28,867 nucleotides of DNA from the NCBI GenBank assembly GCA_964463935.1, contig CAYXEE010000001.1, forward strand, positions 2,581-31,447. The letters are read 5' to 3'. The DNA is from an uncultured Chitinophagaceae bacterium (GTDB lineage: Bacteria; Bacteroidota; Ignavibacteria; UBA10030; UBA8401). The position numbers were made by a program, and so were the translations under genes. This document shows, in pieces, positions 1,792 to 17,764 of this stretch; within the stretch, counting starts at the first letter, position 1; every line of letters starts with the position of its first letter. Under the pieces are notes generated by a model. It had not been told where the DNA came from, did not search any database, and saw only the letters and a program-made list of their open reading frames with translations.

Positions 1792-4700
1792 TTATGGCGC
1801 ATAGGTTAATTCGCCGTCAATGTTCAATGTTCCGCTGTTATCAATATCGTTGCGGACGGCAAGCGTTGCGCCGCTATCTACCAGCAGCGTAGCTCCGGAA
1901 ACAATACCGACATTGTTGTTTACCGTTACTGCGCCGCTTATTGTTTTTGTTCCGCTGCTTGAAACTTCTAAATTATAGTATGTAATCGGGTTAATAGTTT
2001 GCGCGATTGTTCCATTAAATTCTATTGTTGATAAATTTGTAATCGCATCTGCGCTTGCGTCGGAAATAGAAAGAGTTCCTGCAATTCTTGTTATATCCAA
2101 AGCAAATGTTTTCGCGCCGCTTCCGCTTAACGAAAGATTGTTGTAATTAAATTTTGTAATTGTTTGCGCCCCGGCTTTGTTATAATCAATTGTGCTTCCG
2201 GTTGTAACATACGTTCCGCTGTTGGGAGAAAATGTTCCTGAAATTCCGATTGTTCCGCTGTTGGCAAGCGTTACTGTGCCGGATGAATTGATTGTGAGAT
2301 TTCCGAATGATTGCGCTTCAATCGGCTGCGATGTTCCGTAAAATTCTACGGTGCTTGCCGGATTGAATGCGTAGGTAGAATAATTTGCGGGCAATCCGTT
2401 CGTTCCGCCGATTCGCAATGTTGCTCCGGCGCTTACCGATGCAGTTCCCCCAAGTGCGCTTCGGTTTGCAGTATAACTTCCCAAGTCTAATGTTCCGTTT
2501 GTAACGGTAAGATTTCCTGTAATTGTTACATTTGCGCCGAGCGTTACAGCGCCGCCGCTTGCAACAACAAGATTGTTAAATGTTCCGCCGTTAATTGTGG
2601 GATTTGATCCGTAAAAATCAACAATGCTTGCAGGATCGAATGCGTAGGTTGAATAATTTTCCGGCATTCCGTTTGTACCGCCGACTCGAAGCGTGCAAAG
2701 CGCGGCAATAGTAAATGTTCCGCCGAGAGTATTTCTATTTCCTGTGTACGTTTGTAAGTCTAATGTTCCGCCGGAAATTGTAATATCGCCAATAATTGAA
2801 GCGTTTGCTGAAAGCGTTTTTGTTCCCGCTCCGGAAATTATAAGATTATTGTACGACGGCAAATCTGAAATATTTTGCGAACTCGTACCATTATAATCTA
2901 CTGTGCTGGATGTAACAGTATATGAGTTTGAACCTTTTGTAAATGTCCCGGCAATTCCAATTGTTCCGCTGCTGGATAATGTGCGCGAACCGGAAGAAGA
3001 ACTTGTTACGTTTCCATAGTTCGCTGCTTTAATTGTTTGAGCGGCATCCGAAGCGTATATAACAGCGCTTGTTGGATTAAGAGAAATAGAAATATAATTT
3101 GTCGGGAAGGACGTGCCCGAACCTATTCCGCCAAGACTAAGCGTTGCGCTTGCATTTAGCGTTACTGTGTTTGAAGCATTTCCGGTAATTTGGAATCCCG
3201 CATCGTTAAGAGTTACGCCGGAAGCAACGGAAAGATTTCCGTTCACTGTAATTATTCCGGCAAGTTGTTTTGTTCCGCTTCCGCTGAACGACAAGTGATG
3301 ATATGTTTGCGAAGAGACTGTTTGTGCGCCGCTTGCATTGTAGTTTACCGTTCCGCCGGAAATAGTTGTTGTTCCTGATACAGCAGGAAATGTTGTAGCA
3401 GTGTTCACGGCGCCGTTTGATTGAATATAATTGTTTGTTACGGTAAGCGAATTTCCTGTTGTAATAGAAAGCGCAAGCGATGCATTATTTAAAACAACAT
3501 TGTATGCTGTTGCTGCAACATTGATTGTAATAGTATTTGCTCCGGTAAGCTCTACATTACTGTGCGTTGCCGGTACGCCGTTGGGATTCCAATTGTTTGC
3601 GCTGTTCCAATTAACTCCGTCGCCGCCGCCATCCCATGTTGTTGTTAACGGAAGTATGGTAAGATTTGAAGATGCGTTTCCATACAAACCGCCGTCGGTT
3701 ACTGTAATTGTACTTGTTTCAACTACGTTTAAAGTTGTAGTCAGCATTGTTGTTGAAACGCCGGAAGTAAAACTAACATTTGTTGTATATGAAGGAGCGC
3801 CTGCGGGTCCTGAATATGAAAATGTTTTTGCGCCGGAATATGATGGAGCCGTATTTAAATATTGATCTGTTGCTGTTATGGAAGAAATAGTAAACGGCGT
3901 TGCCGCTGTTTGATTTGCCGGCGAACCGGAATTTCCGCTTCCCGATGTAAATGTTTGTCCCGGTAATGTAATTACAAGTTTATCTATTGCGCCTGCAATT
4001 TGAGTCAACGTACCAAAGTTTGTTCCGCCGGTTACTCCAATCAATGTTGACGTTCCGGATTTTGAAATATTTCCGGAAGCAAGCGGAGCTCCGGCGGTCG
4101 GGCGAACACGAATATCCTGCCATGTTAACGAATTCGTAACTCCATTTGATGAAACGCTTGTTACCGTAAAAGTAATTTGCGTTGCAGAAACAATTACAGA
4201 GACCGAAGTACCGTCTGATTCATTGTTGATATTTTCAGAAGCAGTGCCGCTGCCGTTAATTAAAACCGTAGGAGTAATTCCACCCTGATCAAATTCAAAT
4301 CCTGACGGGGCATAAAGTATAATTGTTCCAATACCAACATTTGCGGAAGTTGCTTCTTCGTAATATGGTCCGGTAAGCGCAGTCCAATCTCCGGTACCAA
4401 AATCATCGGCAGAAATTGCATTGCCGTTTACAGCAGCGGCGATTGTAACAGAATTAATTGTTATGCTTGCGCTTGTGCCGGCTGTAACAGCTGGTCCTGC
4501 AATGCTTGTTGCGGTAATGGTTCGTGAACCGGCAGCGTTCATTGAAATAACAAAATCTTTTGTACCGCCGACAAGATCGGCATTTGAAGGAAGCGATGCC
4601 GTTCCATCGTTTGATGTAATTTGAATTGTGTTCGTTGCAGAGACAAGATTCCAATTTACATCAACAGCATTCACTGTAAAAGTAATTGGAGCGGTCGCCG

Positions 4701-7700
4701 CTTGAACCGATGGAGTTCCGGTTTTTCCTGTCGGCGAACCAGGGTCGGCAGTTTCGCCGGGAACGATTACTTGAAGTTTGTCGAGTGCATCCGGATTGAC
4801 AGGAATTGACGAGCTTGTGTTTGGAGAAGGTCCGGTTGCCGATGCAGTAATTGTTGACGCAACAGCTTTGTTCAGTGTTGCGCTTAACAAAACAGTACCA
4901 GACGACAAATTTCCTGAACCAAGCGTGTAATATGGATTATCGGTAGATAAAGTAATTAAATTTGAGCCGCTGTTGACAAAATTCCAACATGAATCAACCG
5001 AGCGAACGGTTACATTAAAACTTACTCCTGCGGTTTGAGCTGTCGAAAAAGATGTTTTTCCTACTCCGACACCGGGCGTTGCAGTTTCATTTGGTACAAG
5101 AATTTGAAGATGCGTATATCCCGCATTATTGATTGTAAGATTTGTCGGCGAGCCGAAATTGTTTCCTTCTTGAACGGAAATTGAAACTGATTCAGCTTTT
5201 CGAAGTCTTGCGGAAATATTTACAGCTACGCCCGCATTAAAAGTTATTGGATTGGAAGAATAGGCGGTATCTCCGGTCGGTCCGGAGTAAGTAAGATTTT
5301 TTGCTCCGCTGTAGCTTGTTGTAATATTTGAATATTGATCTGTTGCAACAAGCGAATCAACGACAAATTCCACGCCGGCAGTTTGTGCTGTTGCAGAACC
5401 ATTCGCGCCTATTCCAATTTTAAAATCTGTTCCCGGAAGAATGACCGCTACCTTTGACATTGCGCCGGCAACTTCAATGAGTCCGCCAAAATTTGTAACA
5501 TTGTTCGTAACGCCGGCCATTACCGAAGTACCGGATTTTGTAATTTGTCCCGAAGCAAGCGGCGAGCCGGCGGATGGACGCACGCGAATATTCTGCCAAG
5601 TTAATGAATCTCGAACGCCGTTTGAGGAAGAAGCTGTTACGGTAAAAGTTATCTGCGTAATTGTTATAGAAGTTATTGGAACAGCAGTTCCGCTTGAAAC
5701 ATTATTAATTTCTCGAGTAGAATCTCCGCTTCCGGAAATTCTTGTAATTAACACAGTCGGCGCTATGCCGGTTGTATCAAAAATAAATCCGGGCGGCGCA
5801 TTAAGAATGATTGTTCCGATTTGAACATCTCCATTTGCGCCTTCCGCATAGAAGGGTCCCGTGAGCGAAGTCCACGTTCCTGTTCCAACATTATCTGCGG
5901 AAATTGCGCCTCCGCCTGTTGCAAGTGAAATATTTGGACTGAGAGAAGATTCTCCGACTTGAAAATCTCCCAGATCGGTTAATTCTAATGCTTGAGTACT
6001 TGTGGAAAGAACATTTCCGATATTCGGCTGACTCCATGAGCCGGAATATCGTGCAATAATAAACGCCAGCGGATTGGCGCCGCCGTCCACATCCGCAGGA
6101 TTAAAATTAAATGTTGCATCAATTGTTGAATATACGGTTCCGCCGTTTGTCAGCGTCCAGTATCGTTGAGCGCTTACAGCAGGATTAATACTTGAATTTG
6201 GTAAATCGGGATGATCTGTTCCTGTTGTGCTTGCAATTACTGTTCCCGAAGATGAAACTGACGCAAAAATTAAATTGACCGGCGTATAATACGCAGCATC
6301 GCCGATTTCAAATGTAACAGCAAGAGGAGAGCCGCTTGTTGAAATTGTTTTTTCAAGATTTCCAATAACATATCCTCCGGAACCTGAAATAGATCCGAGA
6401 GCGCCGATAGAAATTTTATTTGCACCGGTTGTAATTTTCCCGGATGTGAAAGAGAGAACGCCGTTAACGGTAACATTTCCGGAAAGCGTTACGCCGAAAG
6501 AATTGTTTACCGTCATATTGTTCAACACAATAGCAGAAAGATTTTGATTCGCTGTTCCGTTGAATTCAATCGTGCTTCCTGTAACAGTGTACGAGTTTGT
6601 TCCGGCGGTAAAAGTATTTGCAACGCGAATAGTCGCGCTATTGTCTAATGTTCGGTTTCCGCTTGAACTGCTGGTAAGAGTGTAATAGTCTTTTGCGGCG
6701 ATTGTTTGATTTCCTGATCCGTTATAATTTACCGTGCTGCCTGTTGCCAGTATGCCCAGTGTTGGATTGATGTTGTTTTGATTTGTGAGTGTTGCGTTGT
6801 TAGAAACATCAATTGTTCCGGTTACAGCAAATCCTGATGGAATTGTAAAATTGCATACATTGGTACCATCGCCGACAACAATTTTTGAACTTGTGCCGGA
6901 AACCGTCCACGCCGCGCCGATGGTTGGAGCTGCATTATTGCGAATGTAATATGTTTTATTATTTGATGTAAAGTTTAACGGCGCCGTACCATTACCATCT
7001 GTTGCTGTTCCCCAGTTTGAAAGTAAATTTAAATTGCCGGTAGATTTAGAATAATAATTTGAAGGTCCTACGCCTGTAAATTCATCGGCACCGATATCGG
7101 GAGTAGAGCCGGAACGAGCGTCGCCGTCAAAATCTATTGTGTAAGAAGCAATAGCAGAACCGCCGCTTTCAATCTGCGTCAGCGTTCCGGTATCGATATG
7201 CAGAAAATCGGGGCTGTAACCGGTTGTGCTGAGCCACGTCGGATTTTCTGTTACCGAATTAATATCGCGCGGTGAAATTGTTCCTGCGGTAAACACGCCG
7301 GCGTTATAGGCTGTCATTGTCTGCGCAGAAGAAGTTCCATCGGAATAAATCAATCTGCTTGCGCTCGGCGTTCCGGCATACAATAAATTATTATTGGATG
7401 CGCTTGCATAGTTTGCCAGCGTTCCGGCAGTTCCCGCGCTTCTTCGGTAAGCGACCGTTAATCCGGCGCCGGCCGGCGTTGATGTATTAACAATAATATT
7501 GTTTCGCAGATCAAGCGCTGCTGTTGTTGAAACTGCGCTTGCGGCGTGAAATATACCGCTTGAACCAAAAGTTGCGCCGCTTGAGGAGGCATTAAGATGC
7601 ACGCTGTTGTAATACGCATTAATGTTCGAGGTTGCGCCTGTTGCTGTAATACTAATACCGCGAAGAAGATTTGTGCCGCTTGCCGCCGTGGCGCGCAAAT

Positions 7701-10700
7701 CGCCGATGATATTGTTTGAAACATTGGTAACCATTGATGCAACGGCGCCCGATACCAGTATTCCATTGACTGTTCCCGTAGTAACAGCGCTGCTGGAAGT
7801 AGAGAGATCATAAATCTTGTTGCGGTATGCGTTGTTTGTTGTTCCGGCAGAAACTGCAATACCATTGAGCAAGCCCGTTGTAACTGCGTTTGCCGTAAAT
7901 GAATACATTGTATTTTGATAGACGCTTGTTGTTGTTCCGCCGGAAACAGAAATACCGTTGACCGAGCCGGTGGTAAGCGTATTTCCTTGCAGATTATAAA
8001 TCGTATTTTGATAAACGTTCTTTGTTGTCCCCGCAGTTATTGTAATACCGTTGACTGTTGTTGTCGTTCCGCCGGTAGAAGTCAATCCGTAAATTGTATT
8101 AGAATAGATATTATCATTGCCGGCGCCGGATGTTATTCCGGTAATTGTTGCTGCGCCGGAGATTGTATTAATCGAATTATTATACGTTGCGTTATTGTTG
8201 CCGGCAAGACTCATCGCCGTAATAGCGCCTGTTCCGCCCGTCCAGTTCGTAAAGATATTATTAGAAACGCTCTTTGTTGCAGAGCCGGCGTCTGTCGAGA
8301 CCCATCCGGCAATAATTGCGGCTCCGGTAACAGTGATAGTGGAAAAATTATTGCTCCGATGATTAATAACGCTGCCGGAGGCAGAACTTGCCGCGCTGGT
8401 AAAGAGCGTTACGGTTCCGCCGGCGCCGGTTTTATTAAATGCCGTAACAATACTATTGGTATCTATCTTTTGCGCGCCATTGGAATACAATGCAACATTA
8501 TTGCTGATGAATGTTACGCTGCCTGTTGTATTCACAGTAAGATTCGTAAATGTGTTGCTGCTGATATTTTGCGATACTACAGCCGCCGCGTTGCTGATAT
8601 AAGTATGCGCGCTTGAACCGGCAACGCTGTGAGCGATACCTTGAATGTTGTTTGATTGTATCGTTAATGCGCACGAAGCGGCAGCCGTTGTAACATTAAT
8701 ACCTGTAAGCGCGCTTGCATTGGCTGCGCTGTAGGTAACAAATCCGCCGCTGCTGTTGCCAAGCTGATTGTTGATAATATTCAGCGCGCTTGTTACAGCT
8801 CCCGTGCTGGAGATTCCTGTTACTGTTCCCGTTGTATTTGTCCGGGAATGACTTCTGATAATATTGCCGGCGATATTCGCTGTTGATACTGCGGCGGAGT
8901 TTGATATACCTGTCAATGCGCCCGTGCCGGTATTAACAGCCGATAGAATATTGTTCGCAGTTATGGTAAGCGTTCCGCTGCCGCCGCCGTTAACAATGCC
9001 GCTTACGACTGAAGCGCCTGTGCCGTACGCAGTAGCATTCTGAACGGTATTTGCTGTAATGGAAATTGTTCCGGTTGCCGTATTGTTAATTCCGTTGAAT
9101 GTGCATACGCCGGCGGTTGTAGAAACAGTTCCGATAGAGACAGCGTCAATAGTATTATTATCAATCGTAAAATTACCGGCGGCGCCGGATGTCAATATTC
9201 CGTTGAATGTGTATCCGTTCGTCGCTATTCCTGTTGTAATAACATTGGTAATTGTATTTCCCTGTACCGTAACCGCGCCGGTTGAAGCAACCGCTATACC
9301 GTTGATTATAGGAATTGTACTTCCCGAAGCCGACAAGCGCGATATTGTGTTGCCGGTAACATTCACTACCGTTCCTGCCGTTACATTGATACCTGCAACC
9401 GATGCCGTTGCAATTGACAGCGAAGATGAAAGAGAATCTATCAGATTTCCATTGATAGTAACTGTGGGAGATATATTTGCGCTTGCCAATCCAATAACTA
9501 ATCCGCCTGTTCCCGTCGATATTATTGTATCTATCGTATTGCTGTTCACCGTTAGCGCGCTTGCCGTGCCGCTGGCGCCAATATTTAATGCGGTAACCGC
9601 CGCTTGTCCGGTAATTTTTGTAATGATATTATTGGAAACCGTTGATGTTCCTCCAAAACCATTAATGGTCATACCGGTAATTGCTGCGCCGCCGGTTGTC
9701 CAGTTCCTGAAAATATTTCCTGTAACTGTCTGGGTCGGATTGCCCGCGCCGGAGGCACTCCATCCGGTTATTATCGTTGCTCCTGTTGCCGTAACGTTTG
9801 AAAAATTATTGTTTCGGTGATTGATAACAGAGCCCGCCGGCGATACTGCGGCGGTAGTAAAGAATGTTATCGTCCCTCCCGCTGTTCCTTTGGTAAATGA
9901 GCCGGCTATGCTGTTGGTATCTATTTTTTGTGTTCCGTTTGAAAAGAGAGCAACGCTGTTGCTGATGAATGTTACGCTTCCGCTTGTATTAACATTCAAA
10001 TTTGTAAATGTATTACTGCTGATATTCTGCGAACGCGTAACGGCGGCGTTGTTGATATACGTATGCGCGTTTGTTCCTGCTATTGAATAGGCGATGCCTC
10101 TAATGTCGTTCGATTGAATGGTTAATGCCGATTGCGCGCTTCCTCCGGTATTGGTAATTCCAATCAACGCGCTGGAAATTGCCGCGCTGTAAGCAACCAA
10201 TCCATCGCTGCTATTACCAAGCTGGTTGTTAATAATGTTCACCGCCGATGTTACGCCGCCGGAGTTTGAAATACCGGTTACAGCGCCTGTTGCCGCTGTG
10301 CGCGTGTGACTTCGCAGTACGTTGCTGTTAATGTTCAGCGTATCTACTGCCGCCGTGTTGGATATTCCGGTGAACGCTCCTGTGCTCGGAAGCGCTGCTG
10401 AGATAATATTATTGCTGTTGATGTTGAGCGTTGATGCTATGGCAGAATTGGATATGCCGGTAAAAGCTCCGGTTCCTGTGTTTGTTCCCGAAATAATACT
10501 ATTGCTTGTAAGAGCAACTGTGCCGTTCCCTCCTGTATTGGCGATACCATTGAAGACCGATGCTGCCGCGCCATACGCAGTTGCATTCTGTACGGTGTTG
10601 CCGGTAATCGAAATTGTTCCTGTTGCTATATTGGTGATACCGTTGAACGAGCAGACGCCGGTTGTTGTTGACGGCGTTCCTATGGCAATCGCATTCGCCG

Positions 10701-13700
10701 ATGATGCGCTTCCTATCATATTGGATGCAATAGTAACATTCCCCAATGTTCCGGCGGTGTAGATACCATAGAACGTATATCCGATTGCCGCTCCGCCACC
10801 AGCGCTGATTGAACGAATGGTATCGTTCTGAATAGAAACCGTTCCCGCGCTGGTTGAATATATTCCGGTGATTACTCCCGCGGTTGTTGTTGATGTTATG
10901 GAAACCGAATCTACTCCCGGTGTTCCTCCTATGGTATTGCCGGAGGTTGTTCCGATATTAACGTTGCCTGCCAGCGCCGATATTCCTGAGAATATTCCCG
11001 GCAGAGCTCCGGCGCTTGTGGTTGATAAACTAATTCCGGCGATGATGTTTCCTTGTACGCTTGTCGCCGATGCTGTTCCTACCGTAAGTTCTATCGCTCT
11101 GAATATAGCGGCAGCCGCTCCGGCATACAAGGTAACTCCCGTTCCCGATGAATTTGCATATCCGATAATATTATTGCTTATAGCGTAGTTTACGCCCGAT
11201 GCGGTGATAATATTAATTGCGTGATGCGTAGCTGCGCCGCTTGCTGTTCTAACTGCGCTCTGGAAAAATTTATTCCCGGTAATCGTCCACGCCGAGCTGT
11301 TTGACGCTATTAAAATTCCTTTTGATGCCGCCGCTGCGCCGAAATAATCTTGTATGTTGTTGTTGCTGATTGTGATTGCGCTGTTGTCCACCGCCGACGA
11401 TGTTCCTGCTGAATATATTGCGTTGTAGGGAAGGTTGATGCCTGATGATGTTATTGTGCAACCAGTAATTACGTTGTTATCATTGCCGCTTGTACTTCCT
11501 GTGGAAAATAAAATTGTCCCCGATGTCGTGCTTATGCTCGATCCCTTGATCGTACAGTCCTGAATCGTGTTGTTTGTTGCATCGTTAATAAATCGTATCG
11601 TGCTTGCCGCCGCCGTCGCTGATGTGTTCTCGAAGGTTAAGGAATTACCGCCGGTATTCAAACCATCAATAATTACATTGTCCGCTCCGTTCAAATTAAT
11701 AAGCGGCGCTGCTGCCGATCCCGATATTGTTCGTGAAGCGCCGCCTGATGGAGAAATTGTAAGAGTGTATGTAGAGTTATCGTCATACGAAATTGCATTT
11801 AATGAAACAGTTCCCGATTCAGTTATATCGCTGGTGATATGTGCAGTAAGATTTCCCGCCAATCCTTTTGCATTGATATCAAAAAATAATCCTTGTGAAC
11901 TATTTCCGGTCAACGAAGTGTATGGTTTACCGGCGCCGACCTCTACCGTTCCGCTTAAACCAGCAAGAACAGTATAACTATTGATTGTGCCGCCGATTGG
12001 GAAAGCTCCGCTCGTTAGCGCAACGCTTGGCGGTGTTCCAAAAAAAGTTCCGCTGTTTATTCCAACAACAGGCGTAGGAAGAGTATTCTGTGCAACAACA
12101 AAATATTGTATAACATCGCCGGCTGTTACTCCGCCAAATATTAAACCGTGATCAATTGTAAATGAAAACGGACTTGTTGAATTGCTTGCTTCAACATATT
12201 TCCAACCGTTCGTTGTATTGTCATTGGTACCGGGTAATCCGTTTGTGTTTGTAGATTTTTTATACCAGACGCGAGGTTTTGTACCGGCAGTCGTATTAAC
12301 TCCGGTACCATCTGTTATGATTGCTGAAAACGTACGATTTGCAGTAGAGCTTGTATTTCCTAATACTGTATATGTAATAGAAGGTGGAACAAGACTATTT
12401 ACTACGCCTGTAAATTCATCGGCACCGATATCGGGAGTAGAGCCGGAACGAGCGTCGCCGTCAAAATCTATTGTGTAAGAAGCAATAGCAGAACCGCCGC
12501 TTTCAATCTGCGTCAGCGTTCCGGTATCGATATGCAGAAAATCGGGGCTGTAACCGGTTGTGCTGAGCCACGTCGGATTTTCTGTTACCGAATTAATATC
12601 GCGCGGTGAAATTGTTCCTGCGGTAAACACGCCGGCGTTATAGGCTGTCATTGTCTGCGCAGAAGAAGTTCCATCGGAATAAATCAATCTGCTTGCGCTC
12701 GGCGTTCCGGCATACAATAAATTATTATTGGATGCGCTTGCATAGTTTGCCAGCGTTCCGGCAGTTCCCGCGCTTCTTCGGTAAGCGACCGTTAATCCGG
12801 CGCCGGCCGGCGTTGATGTATTAACAATAATATTGTTTCGCAGATCAAGCGCTGCTGTTGTTGAAACTGCGCTTGCGGCGTGAAATATACCGCTTGAACC
12901 AAAAGTTGCGCCGCTTGAGGAGGCATTAAGATGCACGCTGTTGTAATACGCATTAATGTTCGAGGTTGCGCCTGTTGCTGTAATACTAATACCGCGAAGA
13001 AGATTTGTGCCGCTTGCCGCCGTGGCGCGCAAATCGCCGATGATATTGTTTGAAACATTGGTAACCATTGATGCAACGGCGCCCGATACCAGTATTCCAT
13101 TGACTGTTCCCGTAGTAACAGCGCTGCTGGAAGTAGAGAGATCATAAATCTTGTTGCGGTATGCGTTGTTTGTTGTTCCGGCAGAAACTGCAATACCATT
13201 GAGCAAGCCCGTTGTAACTGCGTTTGCCGTAAATGAATACATTGTATTTTGATAGACGCTTGTTGTTGTTCCGCCGGAAACAGAAATACCGTTGACCGAG
13301 CCGGTGGTAAGCGTATTTCCTTGCAGATTATAAATCGTATTTTGATAAACGTTCTTTGTTGTCCCCGCAGTTATTGTAATACCGTTGACTGTTGTTGTCG
13401 TTCCGCCGGTAGAAGTCAATCCGTAAATTGTATTAGAATAGATATTATCATTGCCGGCGCCGGATGTTATTCCGGTAATTGTTGCTGCGCCGGAGATTGT
13501 ATTAATCGAATTATTATACGTTGCGTTATTGTTGCCGGCAAGACTCATCGCCGTAATAGCGCCTGTTCCGCCCGTCCAGTTCGTAAAGATATTATTAGAA
13601 ACGCTCTTTGTTGCAGAGCCGGCGTCTGTCGAGACCCATCCGGCAATAATTGCGGCTCCGGTAACAGTGATAGTGGAAAAATTATTGCTCCGATGATTAA

Positions 13701-16700
13701 TAACGCTGCCGGAGGCAGAACTTGCCGCGCTGGTAAAGAGCGTTACGGTTCCGCCGGCGCCGGTTTTATTAAATGCCGTAACAATACTATTGGTATCTAT
13801 CTTTTGCGCGCCATTGGAATACAATGCAACATTATTGCTGATGAATGTTACGCTGCCTGTTGTATTCACAGTAAGATTCGTAAATGTGTTGCTGCTGATA
13901 TTTTGCGATACTACAGCCGCCGCGTTGCTGATATAAGTATGCGCGCTTGAACCGGCAACGCTGTGAGCGATACCTTGAATGTTGTTTGATTGTATCGTTA
14001 ATGCGCACGAAGCGGCAGCCGTTGTAACATTAATACCTGTAAGCGCGCTTGCATTGGCTGCGCTGTAGGTAACAAATCCGCCGCTGCTGTTGCCAAGCTG
14101 ATTGTTGATAATATTCAGCGCGCTTGTTACAGCTCCCGTGCTGGAGATTCCTGTTACTGTTCCCGTTGTATTTGTCCGGGAATGACTTCTGATAATATTG
14201 CCGGCGATATTCGCTGTTGATACTGCGGCGGAGTTTGATATACCTGTCAATGCGCCCGTGCCGGTATTAACAGCCGATAGAATATTGTTCGCAGTTATGG
14301 TAAGCGTTCCGCTGCCGCCGCCGTTAACAATGCCGCTTACGACTGAAGCGCCTGTGCCGTACGCAGTAGCATTCTGAACGGTATTTGCTGTAATGGAAAT
14401 TGTTCCGGTTGCCGTATTGTTAATTCCGTTGAATGTGCATACGCCGGCGGTTGTAGAAACAGTTCCGATAGAGACAGCGTCAATAGTATTATTATCAATC
14501 GTAAAATTACCGGCGGCGCCGGATGTCAATATTCCGTTGAATGTGTATCCGTTCGTCGCTATTCCTGTTGTAATAACATTGGTAATTGTATTTCCCTGTA
14601 CCGTAACCGCGCCGGTTGAAGCAACCGCTATACCGTTGATTATAGGAATTGTACTTCCCGAAGCCGACAAGCGCGATATTGTGTTGCCGGTAACATTCAC
14701 TACCGTTCCTGCCGTTACATTGATACCTGCAACCGATGCCGTTGCAATTGACAGCGAAGATGAAAGAGAATCTATCAGATTTCCATTGATAGTAACTGTG
14801 GGAGATATATTTGCGCTTGCCAATCCAATAACTAATCCGCCTGTTCCCGTCGATATTATTGTATCTATCGTATTGCTGTTCACCGTTAGCGCGCTTGCCG
14901 TGCCGCTGGCGCCAATATTTAATGCGGTAACCGCCGCTTGTCCGGTAATTTTTGTAATGATATTATTGGAAACCGTTGATGTTCCTCCAAAACCATTAAT
15001 GGTCATACCGGTAATTGCTGCGCCGCCGGTTGTCCAGTTCCTGAAAATATTTCCTGTAACTGTCTGGGTCGGATTGCCCGCGCCGGAGGCACTCCATCCG
15101 GTTATTATCGTTGCTCCTGTTGCCGTAACGTTTGAAAAATTATTGTTTCGGTGATTGATAACAGAGCCCGCCGGCGATACTGCGGCGGTAGTAAAGAATG
15201 TTATCGTCCCTCCCGCTGTTCCTTTGGTAAATGAGCCGGCTATGCTGTTGGTATCTATTTTTTGTGTTCCGTTTGAAAAGAGAGCAACGCTGTTGCTGAT
15301 GAATGTTACGCTTCCGCTTGTATTAACATTCAAATTTGTAAATGTATTACTGCTGATATTCTGCGAACGCGTAACGGCGGCGTTGTTGATATACGTATGC
15401 GCGTTTGTTCCTGCTATTGAATAGGCGATGCCTCTAATGTCGTTCGATTGAATGGTTAATGCCGATTGCGCGCTTCCTCCGGTATTGGTAATTCCAATCA
15501 ACGCGCTGGAAATTGCCGCGCTGTAAGCAACCAATCCATCGCTGCTATTACCAAGCTGGTTGTTAATAATGTTCACCGCCGATGTTACGCCGCCGGAGTT
15601 TGAAATACCGGTTACAGCGCCTGTTGCCGCTGTGCGCGTGTGACTTCGCAGTACGTTGCTGTTAATGTTCAGCGTATCTACTGCCGCCGTGTTGGATATT
15701 CCGGTGAACGCTCCTGTGCTCGGAAGCGCTGCTGAGATAATATTATTGCTGTTGATGTTGAGCGTTGATGCTATGGCAGAATTGGATATGCCGGTAAAAG
15801 CTCCGGTTCCTGTGTTTGTTCCCGAAATAATACTATTGCTTGTAAGAGCAACTGTGCCGTTCCCTCCTGTATTGGCGATACCATTGAAGACCGATGCTGC
15901 CGCGCCATACGCAGTTGCATTCTGTACGGTGTTGCCGGTAATCGAAATTGTTCCTGTTGCTATATTGGTGATACCGTTGAACGAGCAGACGCCGGTTGTT
16001 GTTGACGGCGTTCCTATGGCAATCGCATTCGCCGATGATGCGCTTCCTATCATATTGGATGCAATAGTAACATTCCCCAATGTTCCGGCGGTGTAGATAC
16101 CATAGAACGTATATCCGATTGCCGCTCCGCCACCAGCGCTGATTGAACGAATGGTATCGTTCTGAATAGAAACCGTTCCCGCGCTGGTTGAATATATTCC
16201 GGTGATTACTCCCGCGGTTGTTGTTGATGTTATGGAAACCGAATCTACTCCCGGTGTTCCTCCTATGGTATTGCCGGAGGTTGTTCCGATATTAACGTTG
16301 CCTGCCAGCGCCGATATTCCTGAGAATATTCCCGGCAGAGCTCCGGCGCTTGTGGTTGATAAACTAATTCCGGCGATGATGTTTCCTTGTACGCTTGTCG
16401 CCGATGCTGTTCCTACCGTAAGTTCTATCGCTCTGAATATAGCGGCAGCCGCTCCGGCATACAAGGTAACTCCCGTTCCCGATGAATTTGCATATCCGAT
16501 AATATTATTGCTTATAGCGTAGTTTACGCCCGATGCGGTGATAATATTAATTGCGTGATGCGTAGCTGCGCCGCTTGCTGTTCTAACTGCGCTCTGGAAA
16601 AATTTATTCCCGGTAATCGTCCACGCCGAGCTGTTTGACGCTATTAAAATTCCTTTTGATGCCGCCGCTGCGCCGAAATAATCTTGTATGTTGTTGTTGC

Positions 16701-17325
16701 TGATTGTGATTGCGCTGTTGTCCACCGCCGACGATGTTCCTGCTGAATATATTGCGTTGTAGGGAAGGTTGATGCCTGATGATGTTATTGTGCAACCAGT
16801 AATTACGTTGTTATCATTGCCGCTTGTACTTCCTGTGGAAAATAAAATTGTCCCCGATGTCGTGCTTATGCTCGATCCCTTGATCGTACAGTCCTGAATC
16901 GTGTTGTTTGTTGCATCGTTAATAAATCGTATCGTGCTTGCCGCCGCCGTCGCTGATGTGTTCTCGAAGGTTAATCCGTTCGAACCGTCTATCATCACAT
17001 TATCGGCTCCATTAAGTCTTATCAACGCCCCCGTTATCGCTCCGCTAATCGTCCACGATGATGTTGATGAAATTATCAATGATGTCCACGAACTAACGGA
17101 GGGCTGATTCAGAACCGCAGAATCGATTTCCGTTGTAGACGCAGTAATGCTAATCGCGATAGTGTTTCCTGCTTGCGCAGAATTCAAATTCAATGCATCA
17201 AATGCGGCTTTCAACGTTCCATACGTGCCGTTTGCTCCTGTTGATCCCGTAACAGTTACTTGACCGTACGCTGATGCCGCAATGACATAAACAAAATAAA
17301 ATATTTTTTTCAGTCGGTTATACAT
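1792..17325 (-). CDS. Giant (5177 aa) secreted adhesin-like surface protein with parallel beta-helix modules, Ig-like repeats and C-terminal beta-solenoid repeats
   Basis: Uninterrupted 15.5-kb ORF with signal peptide MYNRLKKIFYFVYVIAASAYG|Q and T/G/S/N-rich xIxxNxI beta-helix repeats. The DFDGDAR...PDIGADEF module end occurs twice, and about 9 repeats of the type T(V/I)(D/E)(Y/F)NG..AQTI...Y.NL..S.SGTKT lie in the C-terminal half. Confidence 0.9.
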   Translation of the reverse strand: MYNRLKKIFYFVYVIAASAYGQVTVTGSTGANGTYGTLKAAFDALNLNSAQAGNTIAISITASTTEIDSAVLNQPSVSSWTSLIISSTSSWTISGAITGALIRLNGADNVMIDGSNGLTFENTSATAAASTIRFINDATNNTIQDCTIKGSSISTTSGTILFSTGSTSGNDNNVITGCTITSSGINLPYNAIYSAGTSSAVDNSAITISNNNIQDYFGAAAASKGILIASNSSAWTITGNKFFQSAVRTASGAATHHAINIITASGVNYAISNNIIGYANSSGTGVTLYAGAAAAIFRAIELTVGTASATSVQGNIIAGISLSTTSAGALPGIFSGISALAGNVNIGTTSGNTIGGTPGVDSVSITSTTTAGVITGIYSTSAGTVSIQNDTIRSISAGGGAAIGYTFYGIYTAGTLGNVTIASNMIGSASSANAIAIGTPSTTTGVCSFNGITNIATGTISITGNTVQNATAYGAAASVFNGIANTGGNGTVALTSNSIISGTNTGTGAFTGISNSAIASTLNINSNNIISAALPSTGAFTGISNTAAVDTLNINSNVLRSHTRTAATGAVTGISNSGGVTSAVNIINNQLGNSSDGLVAYSAAISSALIGITNTGGSAQSALTIQSNDIRGIAYSIAGTNAHTYINNAAVTRSQNISSNTFTNLNVNTSGSVTFISNSVALFSNGTQKIDTNSIAGSFTKGTAGGTITFFTTAAVSPAGSVINHRNNNFSNVTATGATIITGWSASGAGNPTQTVTGNIFRNWTTGGAAITGMTINGFGGTSTVSNNIITKITGQAAVTALNIGASGTASALTVNSNTIDTIISTGTGGLVIGLASANISPTVTINGNLIDSLSSSLSIATASVAGINVTAGTVVNVTGNTISRLSASGSTIPIINGIAVASTGAVTVQGNTITNVITTGIATNGYTFNGILTSGAAGNFTIDNNTIDAVSIGTVSTTAGVCTFNGINNTATGTISITANTVQNATAYGTGASVVSGIVNGGGSGTLTITANNILSAVNTGTGALTGISNSAAVSTANIAGNIIRSHSRTNTTGTVTGISSTGAVTSALNIINNQLGNSSGGFVTYSAANASALTGINVTTAAASCALTIQSNNIQGIAHSVAGSSAHTYISNAAAVVSQNISSNTFTNLTVNTTGSVTFISNNVALYSNGAQKIDTNSIVTAFNKTGAGGTVTLFTSAASSASGSVINHRSNNFSTITVTGAAIIAGWVSTDAGSATKSVSNNIFTNWTGGTGAITAMSLAGNNNATYNNSINTISGAATITGITSGAGNDNIYSNTIYGLTSTGGTTTTVNGITITAGTTKNVYQNTIYNLQGNTLTTGSVNGISVSGGTTTSVYQNTMYSFTANAVTTGLLNGIAVSAGTTNNAYRNKIYDLSTSSSAVTTGTVNGILVSGAVASMVTNVSNNIIGDLRATAASGTNLLRGISITATGATSNINAYYNSVHLNASSSGATFGSSGIFHAASAVSTTAALDLRNNIIVNTSTPAGAGLTVAYRRSAGTAGTLANYASASNNNLLYAGTPSASRLIYSDGTSSAQTMTAYNAGVFTAGTISPRDINSVTENPTWLSTTGYSPDFLHIDTGTLTQIESGGSAIASYTIDFDGDARSGSTPDIGADEFTGVVNSLVPPSITYTVLGNTSSTANRTFSAIITDGTGVNTTAGTKPRVWYKKSTNTNGLPGTNDNTTNGWKYVEASNSTSPFSFTIDHGLIFGGVTAGDVIQYFVVAQNTLPTPVVGINSGTFFGTPPSVALTSGAFPIGGTINSYTVLAGLSGTVEVGAGKPYTSLTGNSSQGLFFDINAKGLAGNLTAHITSDITESGTVSLNAISYDDNSTYTLTISPSGGASRTISGSAAAPLINLNGADNVIIDGLNTGGNSLTFENTSATAAASTIRFINDATNNTIQDCTIKGSSISTTSGTILFSTGSTSGNDNNVITGCTITSSGINLPYNAIYSAGTSSAVDNSAITISNNNIQDYFGAAAASKGILIASNSSAWTITGNKFFQSAVRTASGAATHHAINIITASGVNYAISNNIIGYANSSGTGVTLYAGAAAAIFRAIELTVGTASATSVQGNIIAGISLSTTSAGALPGIFSGISALAGNVNIGTTSGNTIGGTPGVDSVSITSTTTAGVITGIYSTSAGTVSIQNDTIRSISAGGGAAIGYTFYGIYTAGTLGNVTIASNMIGSASSANAIAIGTPSTTTGVCSFNGITNIATGTISITGNTVQNATAYGAAASVFNGIANTGGNGTVALTSNSIISGTNTGTGAFTGISNSAIASTLNINSNNIISAALPSTGAFTGISNTAAVDTLNINSNVLRSHTRTAATGAVTGISNSGGVTSAVNIINNQLGNSSDGLVAYSAAISSALIGITNTGGSAQSALTIQSNDIRGIAYSIAGTNAHTYINNAAVTRSQNISSNTFTNLNVNTSGSVTFISNSVALFSNGTQKIDTNSIAGSFTKGTAGGTITFFTTAAVSPAGSVINHRNNNFSNVTATGATIITGWSASGAGNPTQTVTGNIFRNWTTGGAAITGMTINGFGGTSTVSNNIITKITGQAAVTALNIGASGTASALTVNSNTIDTIISTGTGGLVIGLASANISPTVTINGNLIDSLSSSLSIATASVAGINVTAGTVVNVTGNTISRLSASGSTIPIINGIAVASTGAVTVQGNTITNVITTGIATNGYTFNGILTSGAAGNFTIDNNTIDAVSIGTVSTTAGVCTFNGINNTATGTISITANTVQNATAYGTGASVVSGIVNGGGSGTLTITANNILSAVNTGTGALTGISNSAAVSTANIAGNIIRSHSRTNTTGTVTGISSTGAVTSALNIINNQLGNSSGGFVTYSAANASALTGINVTTAAASCALTIQSNNIQGIAHSVAGSSAHTYISNAAAVVSQNISSNTFTNLTVNTTGSVTFISNNVALYSNGAQKIDTNSIVTAFNKTGAGGTVTLFTSAASSASGSVINHRSNNFSTITVTGAAIIAGWVSTDAGSATKSVSNNIFTNWTGGTGAITAMSLAGNNNATYNNSINTISGAATITGITSGAGNDNIYSNTIYGLTSTGGTTTTVNGITITAGTTKNVYQNTIYNLQGNTLTTGSVNGISVSGGTTTSVYQNTMYSFTANAVTTGLLNGIAVSAGTTNNAYRNKIYDLSTSSSAVTTGTVNGILVSGAVASMVTNVSNNIIGDLRATAASGTNLLRGISITATGATSNINAYYNSVHLNASSSGATFGSSGIFHAASAVSTTAALDLRNNIIVNTSTPAGAGLTVAYRRSAGTAGTLANYASASNNNLLYAGTPSASRLIYSDGTSSAQTMTAYNAGVFTAGTISPRDINSVTENPTWLSTTGYSPDFLHIDTGTLTQIESGGSAIASYTIDFDGDARSGSTPDIGADEFTGVGPSNYYSKSTGNLNLLSNWGTATDGNGTAPLNFTSNNKTYYIRNNAAPTIGAAWTVSGTSSKIVVGDGTNVCNFTIPSGFAVTGTIDVSNNATLTNQNNINPTLGILATGSTVNYNGSGNQTIAAKDYYTLTSSSSGNRTLDNSATIRVANTFTAGTNSYTVTGSTIEFNGTANQNLSAIVLNNMTVNNSFGVTLSGNVTVNGVLSFTSGKITTGANKISIGALGSISGSGGYVIGNLEKTISTSGSPLAVTFEIGDAAYYTPVNLIFASVSSSGTVIASTTGTDHPDLPNSSINPAVSAQRYWTLTNGGTVYSTIDATFNFNPADVDGGANPLAFIIARYSGSWSQPNIGNVLSTSTQALELTDLGDFQVGESSLSPNISLATGGGAISADNVGTGTWTSLTGPFYAEGANGDVQIGTIILNAPPGFIFDTTGIAPTVLITRISGSGDSTREINNVSSGTAVPITSITITQITFTVTASSSNGVRDSLTWQNIRVRPSAGSPLASGQITKSGTSVMAGVTNNVTNFGGLIEVAGAMSKVAVILPGTDFKIGIGANGSATAQTAGVEFVVDSLVATDQYSNITTSYSGAKNLTYSGPTGDTAYSSNPITFNAGVAVNISARLRKAESVSISVQEGNNFGSPTNLTINNAGYTHLQILVPNETATPGVGVGKTSFSTAQTAGVSFNVTVRSVDSCWNFVNSGSNLITLSTDNPYYTLGSGNLSSGTVLLSATLNKAVASTITASATGPSPNTSSSIPVNPDALDKLQVIVPGETADPGSPTGKTGTPSVQAATAPITFTVNAVDVNWNLVSATNTIQITSNDGTASLPSNADLVGGTKDFVISMNAAGSRTITATSIAGPAVTAGTSASITINSVTIAAAVNGNAISADDFGTGDWTALTGPYYEEATSANVGIGTIILYAPSGFEFDQGGITPTVLINGSGTASENINNESDGTSVSVIVSATQITFTVTSVSSNGVTNSLTWQDIRVRPTAGAPLASGNISKSGTSTLIGVTGGTNFGTLTQIAGAIDKLVITLPGQTFTSGSGNSGSPANQTAATPFTISSITATDQYLNTAPSYSGAKTFSYSGPAGAPSYTTNVSFTSGVSTTMLTTTLNVVETSTITVTDGGLYGNASSNLTILPLTTTWDGGGDGVNWNSANNWNPNGVPATHSNVELTGANTITINVAATAYNVVLNNASLALSITTGNSLTVTNNYIQSNGAVNTATTFPAVSGTTTISGGTVNYNASGAQTVSSQTYHHLSFSGSGTKQLAGIITVNGNLSVASGVTLNDAGFQITGNASNTVTLNASATLSLGGIGSGTSFPTNYISISLNPTSAVIYASDAAQTIKAANYGNVTSSSSGSRTLSSSGTIGIAGTFTKGSNSYTVTSSTVDYNGTSSQNISDLPSYNNLIISGAGTKTLSANASIIGDITISGGTLDLQTYTGNRNTLGGTFTIAALCTLRVGGTNGMPENYSTYAFDPASIVDFYGSNPTINGGTFNNLVVASGGAVTLGANVTITGNLTVTNGTLDLGSYTANRSALGGTASVSAGATLRIGGTNGLPANYSTYAFNPASTVEFYGTSQPIEAQSFGNLTINSSGTVTLANSGTIGISGTFSPNSGTYVTTGSTIDYNKAGAQTITKFNYNNLSLSGSGAKTFALDITRIAGTLSISDASADAITNLSTIEFNGTIAQTINPITYYNLEVSSSGTKTISGAVTVNNNVGIVSGATLLVDSGATLAVRNDIDNSGTLNIDGELTYAP
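1941..2086. repeat. Direct repeat near the 3' end of the giant gene, copy of 1-146
   Basis: Same alignment as 1-146. It encodes IAGTLSISDASADAITNLSTIEFNGTIAQTINPITYYNLEVSSSGTKT. Confidence 0.9.
7068..11640. repeat. Intragenic direct repeat copy B (4573 bp)
   Basis: Matches 12402-16974 at a constant offset of 5334. All opposite-strand shadow ORFs, which are sensitive to synonymous changes, translate identically in both copies. Boundaries are CTACGCCTGTAAA and GAAGGTTAA. Confidence 0.95.
12402..16974. repeat. Intragenic direct repeat copy A (4573 bp)
   Basis: As for copy B. The two copies are separated by a unique, in-frame 761-bp spacer (11641-12401). Confidence 0.95.
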
Positions 17326-17533
17326 CTATATATTGTAGAACTTCAGTTATTATCAAAAATTCTTTTTTACAGCATCTAAAAAACTTTGAATTAATCATAG
17401 TAATCAAAAACAGAACCGCGTTGGCGCTGAAATTATTATACTCCTATGCGACGCTTTCGGTAGATTACCGTTGCAGACGATAATACCTAATGCGACTATC
17501 TACGATTAAAAAATAAATTTCAGATGAACTATT

Positions 17534-17764
17534 TTATGCCGCCGCAACAAATTGATCCGAAGGCGCATTAACCGAAAATGACAACGAAACATCATATCCG
17601 TAAACAGCTATAAACTCCTTAATACTTTCCTGCTTAAATTTACGATGTCCGCCGGGTGTTCTAAAACATTTCAACTTCCCTTCTTCAGCCCAGCGTTTTA
17701 CTGTAGATTTGCCGACATGAAGAATTTTGGATACATCTTCTGTGTTAAGCAATACATCGTACAT
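17534..17764 (-). CDS. Stand-alone BldC/excisionase-like (HTH_17, MerR-like) DNA-binding protein
   Basis: LLNTEDVSKILHVGKSTVKRWAEEGKLKCFRTPGGHRKF matches the BldC/Xis pattern (L.T.EVA..F.V...TV.RWA..GKL...RT.GGHRR). There is a strong AAGGAGG SD 4 nt upstream of the ATG. Confidence 0.88.
   Translation of the reverse strand: MYDVLLNTEDVSKILHVGKSTVKRWAEEGKLKCFRTPGGHRKFKQESIKEFIAVYGYDVSLSFSVNAPSDQFVAAA

Follow-up and report, generated by a model that had tools for sequence, protein, structure and literature searches.

How does one bacterial gene come to hold two copies of the same 4.6-kb segment, identical to the last letter, on either side of a segment that occurs only once? The window that we analysed (the whole stretch of 28,867 nucleotides, from an uncultured Chitinophagaceae bacterium) carries such a gene. 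A single open reading frame on the minus strand (1792..17325) encodes a giant secreted or surface beta-helix protein of 5177 amino acids (P0001), and both copies lie within this 15.5-kb gene. Comparison of the window with itself at an offset of 5334 found that 7068–11640 equals 12402–16974 letter for letter over 4573 bp, without a single mismatch or N; a repeat search agrees, and the 100% identity, synonymous sites included, is no independent measurement if a de Bruijn graph prints both copies from one edge. The period of 5334 bp (3 × 1778, or 1778 codons) keeps both copies in the same frame, and the spacer between them (11641–12401; 761 bp, 254 residues) is likewise in frame. Beyond both repeat ends, ungapped identity at the same offset drops at once to about 15–45%, mostly 25–35%, and inspection of the four repeat boundaries by eye brought out no striking microhomology. 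A 4573-bp exact repeat cannot have arisen by chance.

In the protein, the two copies are residues 118–1641 and 1896–3419; each begins LTFEN and ends GADEFTGV. An earlier reading of the letters without database searches (the sequence-only reading) had described two identical 4573-bp modules with this period and these first and last residues, and the exact comparison bears out both descriptions. Plus-strand open reading frames within the repeat (7915–8616, 9059–9820 and their twins) have no family and were set aside as shadows of the coding strand.

The structural unit of the protein is a head followed by a beta-helix body, and the parts of P0001 run in the order signal peptide, head a, body, Ig-like domain, head b, body, C-terminal region. 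Residues 1–117 (16975..17325, on the minus strand like all parts that follow) are, as read from the sequence, the signal peptide and head a; about the first 21 of them (17263–17325) read as a Sec signal peptide. The N-proximal body, R, occupies residues 118–1641 (12402..16974). The spacer has two parts, an Ig/FN3-like beta-sandwich (residues 1642 to about 1781; 11983..12401) and head b, a second beta-helix cap homologous to head a (residues about 1782 to 1895; 11641..11982). The C-proximal body R (residues 1896–3419; 7068..11640) leads into a unique C-terminal region of 1758 residues (3420–5177; 1792..7067) that is repetitive and beta-rich. That the end of the spacer is a diverged homolog of the gene's own N-terminus had been noticed in the sequence-only reading; indeed, head a (residues 12–116) aligns with spacer residues 142–249 with roughly one third of the residues identical, and the DNA of the two heads is about 65% identical just ahead of the repeat boundary. 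Body R itself holds an older internal duplication, at an offset of about 485–520 residues and with 34–65% identity.

Neither R nor the spacer nor the C-terminal region reached the cut-off of any Pfam or NCBIfam family. The only match on the body, PF13229 (Beta_helix), stayed below its curated cut-off (18.9 versus 25.9 bits, E 0.0012, residues 92–275), and the C-terminal region gave only faint matches to PATR and autotransporter repeats. An AlphaFold model of residues 60–560, built on an alignment of 24 module starts, is all-beta (pLDDT 91.4, pTM 0.93). Its top matches in the PDB are nearly all beta-helix proteins, including PL6 alginate lyases (E 8.8e-6), AlgE epimerases, tailspikes, pertactin and PfbA, at low TM-scores of 0.14–0.36. 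In this model the start of body R is shown as a right-handed parallel beta-helix. The 254-residue spacer was modelled from 42 aligned sequences (pLDDT 90.7); its first ~140 residues are predicted to form the Ig/FN3-like beta-sandwich and its last ~110 are head b. The best AlphaFold DB match of the spacer model is a "Bacterial Ig-like domain" protein (E 4.9e-11), and its PDB matches are weak.

The C-terminal region has no recognisable type 9 secretion system (T9SS) sorting domain: residues 4300–5177 gave no match to the type A domain (PF18962/Por_Secre_tail), even at E values up to 1. Nor did any other part of the contig, and about 85 open reading frames on the other contigs of the same bin carry this domain. 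The features found are a signal peptide, beta-helix modules and an Ig-like domain; on these, "adhesin" is a reasonable guess at the role of P0001.

Is the arrangement peculiar to this gene? A search with residues 1400–2100, which span the end of the first body, the spacer and the start of the second body, returned 359 homologs of 3000–7700 residues from Flavobacterium, Ferruginibacter, Chitinophagales and Bacteroidales genomes and from metagenomes. Many of them match 99–100% of the query at 55–62% identity. Comparison with 119 other long proteins found the spacer in 115, and that of P0001 is 51–65% identical to the spacers of 41 homologs. Moreover, the order head, body, spacer, head, body is kept in most of the 15 homologs that we mapped. 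P0012 (5297 residues, from a JGI metagenome), P0011, P0013 and P0004/P0005, for example, share with P0001 a head, a beta-helix, an Ig-like spacer, a second head and a second beta-helix. As judged from these alignments, the two-module layout is old and common to relatives across the Bacteroidota. P0001 differs from the other giant Bacteroidota proteins of this kind in its longer bodies (1524 residues) and in lacking a T9SS sorting domain. Among close kin the gene is patchy: the best match in 40 relatives is 52% identical, one same-genus genome that we searched has no match, and the sequence cluster of P0001 has a single member. Some homologs bear a precomputed PF13229, and P0013 is a 6201-residue protein named for Flavobacterium faecale.

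The layout of P0001 is thus ordinary for the family, and it is the likeness of the two bodies that sets the protein apart. In a windowed self-comparison of 120 proteins, the best internal repeat was 50–69% identical in 85, and 100% was reached by P0001 and P0012 only. Bodies a and b are 54–58% identical in P0004, P0007 and P0013, 68% in P0011, 70% in P0003 (including a patch at 86–88%), 88% in P0012 and 100% in P0001. In homologs from complete or large genomes, the two modules have diverged, whereas the body of P0001 is fully homogenized. The heads behave quite differently: wherever both occur in the profiled proteins, heads a and b are 14–32% identical. A metagenome scan with the P0012 spacer as query returned 24 more distant loci of homologs, in which no DNA repeat of at least 300 nt lies above 93% identity.

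P0012 also comes from metagenome assembly, and its own exact tract covers 1090 residues (224–1313 = 1864–2953) within flanks that are homologous but diverged. Its variants carry the same substitution in both copies (T375A and T2015A), and in one of them (P0131) the exact tract is 25 residues longer, so that the end of the tract differs between assemblies. These paired substitutions and the shifted tract end are not decisive, because concerted evolution and collapse of an assembly graph both predict them.

What decides how the bodies became alike is the comparison of each body with the head that stands next to it. We built a tree from the ~100 residues ahead of each body in 13 proteins. It separates the 13 heads a from the 13 heads b with support of 100/99 and in 100% of bootstrap trees, P0001, P0011 and P0012 included; head a of P0001 groups with the heads a of 12 homologs, and its head b with their heads b. 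Trees of the first 400 and of the last 450 body residues of the same 13 proteins, both unrooted, give separate a and b groups in ten of them. In P0001, P0011 and P0012, by contrast, the two bodies of one protein are sisters. A constraint that groups all a bodies was rejected (p-AU 0.0155).

P0011 is informative in its own right. With P0011 alone, orthology was rejected for the first 400 residues (lnL difference 105, p-AU 3.8e-61) but not for the last 450 (p 0.495), so that P0011 is itself a mosaic. This protein cannot be a product of assembly collapse, because its bodies are only 68% identical and it was seen on eight contigs.

Because they are unrooted, the body trees taken alone would allow independent duplications in the three lineages. 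The heads close that route: since they split into a and b, the duplication of head plus body predates all 13 proteins, and the bodies were made alike later in three lineages. P0001 gives the sharpest picture of this. Its bodies are 100% alike within the protein and 45–58% identical to the bodies of homologs, and the adjacent heads keep the old tree while the bodies pair within the protein. The edges of the tract are sharp as well. The exact match starts right past a 4-codon indel beside the diverged heads (IDGSNG versus IDGLNTGGNS) and stops, at GADEFTGV, where homology itself stops.

Heads and bodies give conflicting trees, the tract ends abruptly on both sides, and the heads are 20–30% identical; together these observations argue for conversion and against a new duplication. 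The identical modules are best explained as one old body recently copied over the other, that is, by gene conversion; such a footprint is expected of gene conversion, and equally of a double exchange between sister chromosomes with the same result. The course of events that we infer, both for the mechanism and for its recency, would be as follows. An ancient duplication of head plus body, shared with relatives across the Bacteroidota, would have produced the two-module protein. In the lineage of P0001, one 4.57-kb body would then recently have been replaced by the sequence of the other in a homologous recombination inside the gene, by gene conversion or by the equivalent double exchange between sister chromosomes; the unrooted body trees allow either body as the donor. 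The converted tract would have been bounded by the 4-codon indel at the heads and by the loss of homology after GADEFTGV at the other end. We give a probability of roughly 65% to this reading of P0001, a surface protein with two ancient modules in which intragenic gene conversion has recently homogenized the bodies.

How far can the perfection of the repeat be trusted? The contig that holds the window is the largest (39.6 kb) of a 2.86-Mb bin of 522 contigs that is 86.7% complete. The bin is fragmented and comes from short reads at low coverage, about 5x per repeat copy. The next-longest repeat at 98% identity or more in the whole bin measures 244 bp, and exact overlaps between contig ends range from 21 to 55 nt with a ceiling of exactly 55, a pattern typical of de Bruijn assemblies from the SPAdes family whose last k was 55. 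Faced with a simple loop of an edge R and a loop edge S, an assembler of this type writes the path R-S-R once. Because a single edge then supplies both copies of R, they are bound to be identical, small differences between them may have been merged, and "two" is the minimum traversal. The R-S-R path in P0001 is probably a loop of this kind written out once, in which case perfection and copy number are partly assembler output. Where the assembly has two copies without a flaw, the data bear out two or more that are nearly identical. The same caution extends to other loci: when a contig from a short-read bin contains an exact repeat of kilobase size, a graph loop is the probable source, and the perfection or copy number of such repeats should not be taken as biology without long reads.

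Independent contigs bear on copy number. Only one public run, a subsurface metagenome, contains the locus and is available as Logan contigs, an independent assembly at k=31. We aligned these contigs to the permuted stretch 9367–14700, which holds R once together with both spacer junctions. A contig of 5369 nt equals window 12326–17694, with no differences and a mean word depth of 9.81; it takes in the whole of R, with 76 nt of spacer on one side and 720 nt of N-terminal flank on the other. A second contig of 504 nt covers spacer positions 11830–12333 at a depth of 4.8. If single-copy parts have that depth, R lies at ~10.7, about 2.2 times the spacer, a ratio of contig means rather than of per-base depths and with this single 504-nt contig at about 5x as its denominator. 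For n bodies and n−1 spacers, the expected ratio is 2.0 with two copies and 1.5 with three. The observed ratio points to two copies as the prevailing form in the sample; a comparison of repeat with spacer depth had been proposed as a check in the sequence-only reading, and its outcome fits two copies. A 1480-nt Logan contig (depth 4.87) was rejected as a single-copy baseline, as it is not part of this bin.

Of the two spacer junctions, one is crossed by the unbranched 5369-nt contig. The other, 11640/11641, where head b passes into the start of R, comes from the bin's contig alone, because no run covers it: the 189 bp that close the loop (11641–11829) are covered by no Logan contig, and a search of indexed public runs with 11611–11860 returned none that contains it, a share of 0.08 in an unrelated freshwater run being disregarded. 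Nevertheless, this junction is favoured on several grounds. The spacer is an intact, conserved and well-folding domain across 11829/11830; the spacers of homologs also end in a head that leads into the second beta-helix body; the bin holds no orphan R-like contig; and the other junction is the one crossed without a branch.

With this evidence in hand, the other explanations can be weighed. A new segmental duplication, adding a second module to a single-module ancestor, would account for 4.6 kb of perfect identity and for a period that stays in frame. A fresh tandem duplication is disfavoured, however, because it would have copied the head too and cannot give rise to a unique spacer between the copies. 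The heads of P0001 are about as diverged from one another as those of every homolog and each groups with its positional counterparts, and the spacer is conserved across the family. The sequence-only reading had left the choice at "very recent duplication or gene conversion"; the head tree and the shared spacer favour conversion and make a new duplication very improbable. A different kind of account concerns the assembly rather than the gene. Two real bodies in one gene may differ by up to a few percent, bubble merging having printed one consensus edge twice. The conversion would then be older, "very recent" and "no synonymous differences" would be artefacts, and the copy number could be three or more. 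The signs of a graph loop (the 55-nt overlap ceiling and the want of any other bin repeat longer than 244 bp) would fit this account, as would the coverage of only ~5x per copy, and the paired substitution and shifting tract end of the P0012 variants are what a shared graph edge would give. Against it, no contigs of an alternative allele turned up at 90% likeness or more in the k=31 assembly, which also merges bubbles, and the depth ratio of ~2.2 fits two copies better than three. Merged bodies are unlikely on balance, though they keep a real share of our judgement.

A more drastic error would be a chimeric loop, in which the gene holds R only once and encodes a 3399-residue protein, the spacer having come from another gene, another strain or a circular molecule in which short identical stretches match the ends of R. 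Junction 11640/11641 and the 189 bp before it are, as noted above, without independent support, the long Logan contig does pass from R straight into the N-terminal flank, and the same-genus reference genome lacks such a gene. Yet that same contig continues without a break from its 76 nt of spacer across the whole of R, which makes one of the junctions real and unbranched, and R has about twice the depth of the spacer. Head b of the intact spacer must precede the start of a beta-helix, as it does in the 41 aligned homologs. No orphan or diverged R-like contig was found elsewhere in the bin, and the assembled layout is the usual one of the family. We consider a mis-assembly of this sort very unlikely. 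A 5334-bp circle that accompanies a single-module gene would give the same graph and depth; we rejected it as implausible because it would need a 1:1 ratio, carries no replication function and has the family layout against it. Conversion between two old bodies remains the reading that we prefer.

If P0001 is as we read it, what might its repeats do? Two 4.6-kb direct repeats 761 bp apart should recombine fairly often (RecA-dependent recombination). Plausible products are a 3399-residue deletion, a 6955-residue triplication and a 5334-bp circle, with all variants in frame; the sequence-only reading had given these lengths for one period lost or gained, and its arithmetic is correct. Short contigs cannot reveal a mixture of such alleles, because one-copy and two-copy alleles share all junctions. 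The idea of an accordion-like stalk, also put forward there, is the concept of the Periscope Proteins, the described class that comes nearest: bacterial surface proteins of variable length such as SasG, Rib, Sgo_0707, Esp and CdrA, in which repeats of highly identical DNA are proposed to let intragenic recombination add or remove repeats in frame (Whelan et al. 2021, PNAS, PMC8201768). P0001 shares with them a large exported protein and long repeats that are highly identical in DNA. However, a Periscope stalk strings many small folded domains together in tandem, whereas P0001 has two 1524-residue beta-helix bodies and a unique 254-residue spacer; and the class is defined by length variation between strains, with long reads as support in that paper (PMC8201768), whereas P0001 is one short-read locus. 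That the twin modules are a working length switch, with one-, two- and three-module alleles (3399, 5177 and 6955 residues) in the population sorted by selection, is in our view unlikely. Were it true, the repeated homogenization in the family would be maintained because it keeps the switch at hand, and a Periscope-like mechanism would operate in environmental Bacteroidota in 1778-residue steps of whole beta-helix modules.

Gene conversion of the kind proposed here is already known in evolution. The closest parallel in mechanism is the concerted evolution by gene conversion of bacterial paralogs such as rRNA operons (PMC8022953, PMC6002687), which have in common with P0001 kilobase tracts that are identical within a genome, flanks and orthologs that diverge, and conflicting trees for adjacent segments. 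P0001 differs in that donor and acceptor share a reading frame and lie 761 bp apart. If real, this is an unusually large tract of recent homogenization within a gene: its 4.6 kb encode one entire structural module of a giant surface protein. It would also add a beta-helix case from environmental Bacteroidota to a picture drawn mainly from the surface proteins of well-studied pathogens. The homogenization of P0001 is set in a family whose members have mostly kept their two modules apart for long, and the protein offers a clean conflict between head and body trees. In most relatives the modules have long escaped homogenization, as the 54–58% identity in the three typical relatives profiled attests.

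The two exact 4,573-bp copies of the module body (7068–11640 and 12402–16974) of the giant gene each contain an older repeat. Self-comparison revealed an internal duplication within each copy, in which body residues 256–860 align with residues 778–1338 at 34–65% identity and an offset of about 485–520 residues. It spans 12960–15830 in the N-proximal copy of the body and 7626–10496 in the C-proximal copy. The bodies of the giant protein (P0001) are ~500 residues longer than those of most homologs as a consequence of this internal duplication.

Several homologs of the giant protein also carry internal repeats. P0002 (5,932 aa, from a Logan contig assembly) has seven spacer-like domains spaced about 631 residues apart, and its internal repeats are less than 80% identical. 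Within this family, then, a unit that includes the spacer has expanded to multiple copies. Two further homologs, P0009 and P0056, have ~95% identical internal repeats offset by ~650 residues; this unit is smaller than, and distinct from, the module bodies. The homolog P0012 (a JGI metagenome protein of about 5,300 aa), which is 57% identical to residues 1400–2100 of the giant protein, contains an exact 1,090-residue tract repeated at an offset of 1,640 residues. Its two variants (P0131 and P0133, likewise about 5,300 aa, from JGI and ENA metagenomes) each carry the identical T-to-A substitution in both copies of the tract, and in one of them the exact tract is 25 residues longer.

The family is patchily distributed. 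The single genome of the same genus that we searched gave no match, and of the 24 genomes of the same family, 6 contained matches; the best homologs of the giant protein come from metagenomes of other lineages. Together, these observations suggest a history of gain and loss, or of horizontal transfer.

Independent coverage of the spacer that separates the bodies (11641–12401) is patchy, at ~5x in the Logan assembly of the sole public run that holds the locus. This assembly has holes at 11641–11829 and about 12326–12333, with the adjoining sequence covered, and the two contigs that cover the spacer overlap each other by only 8 nt.

A profile search detected no T9SS type A sorting domain at the C-terminus of the giant protein (gene end, window 1792–2100). 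Matches to PF18962 above cut-off number ~85 ORFs in the metagenome-assembled genome, all on other contigs and none on the contig that carries the locus. The giant gene shares its 3′ end with its downstream neighbour, a large signal-peptide gene on the minus strand (2–523; the window starts inside it). The repeat search of the window aligned 1–253 with 1941–2193 at 79% identity over 253 nt, and this likeness marks a cassette common to the adjacent genes. Beyond the window, tblastn found more C-terminal-like pieces on the same contig.
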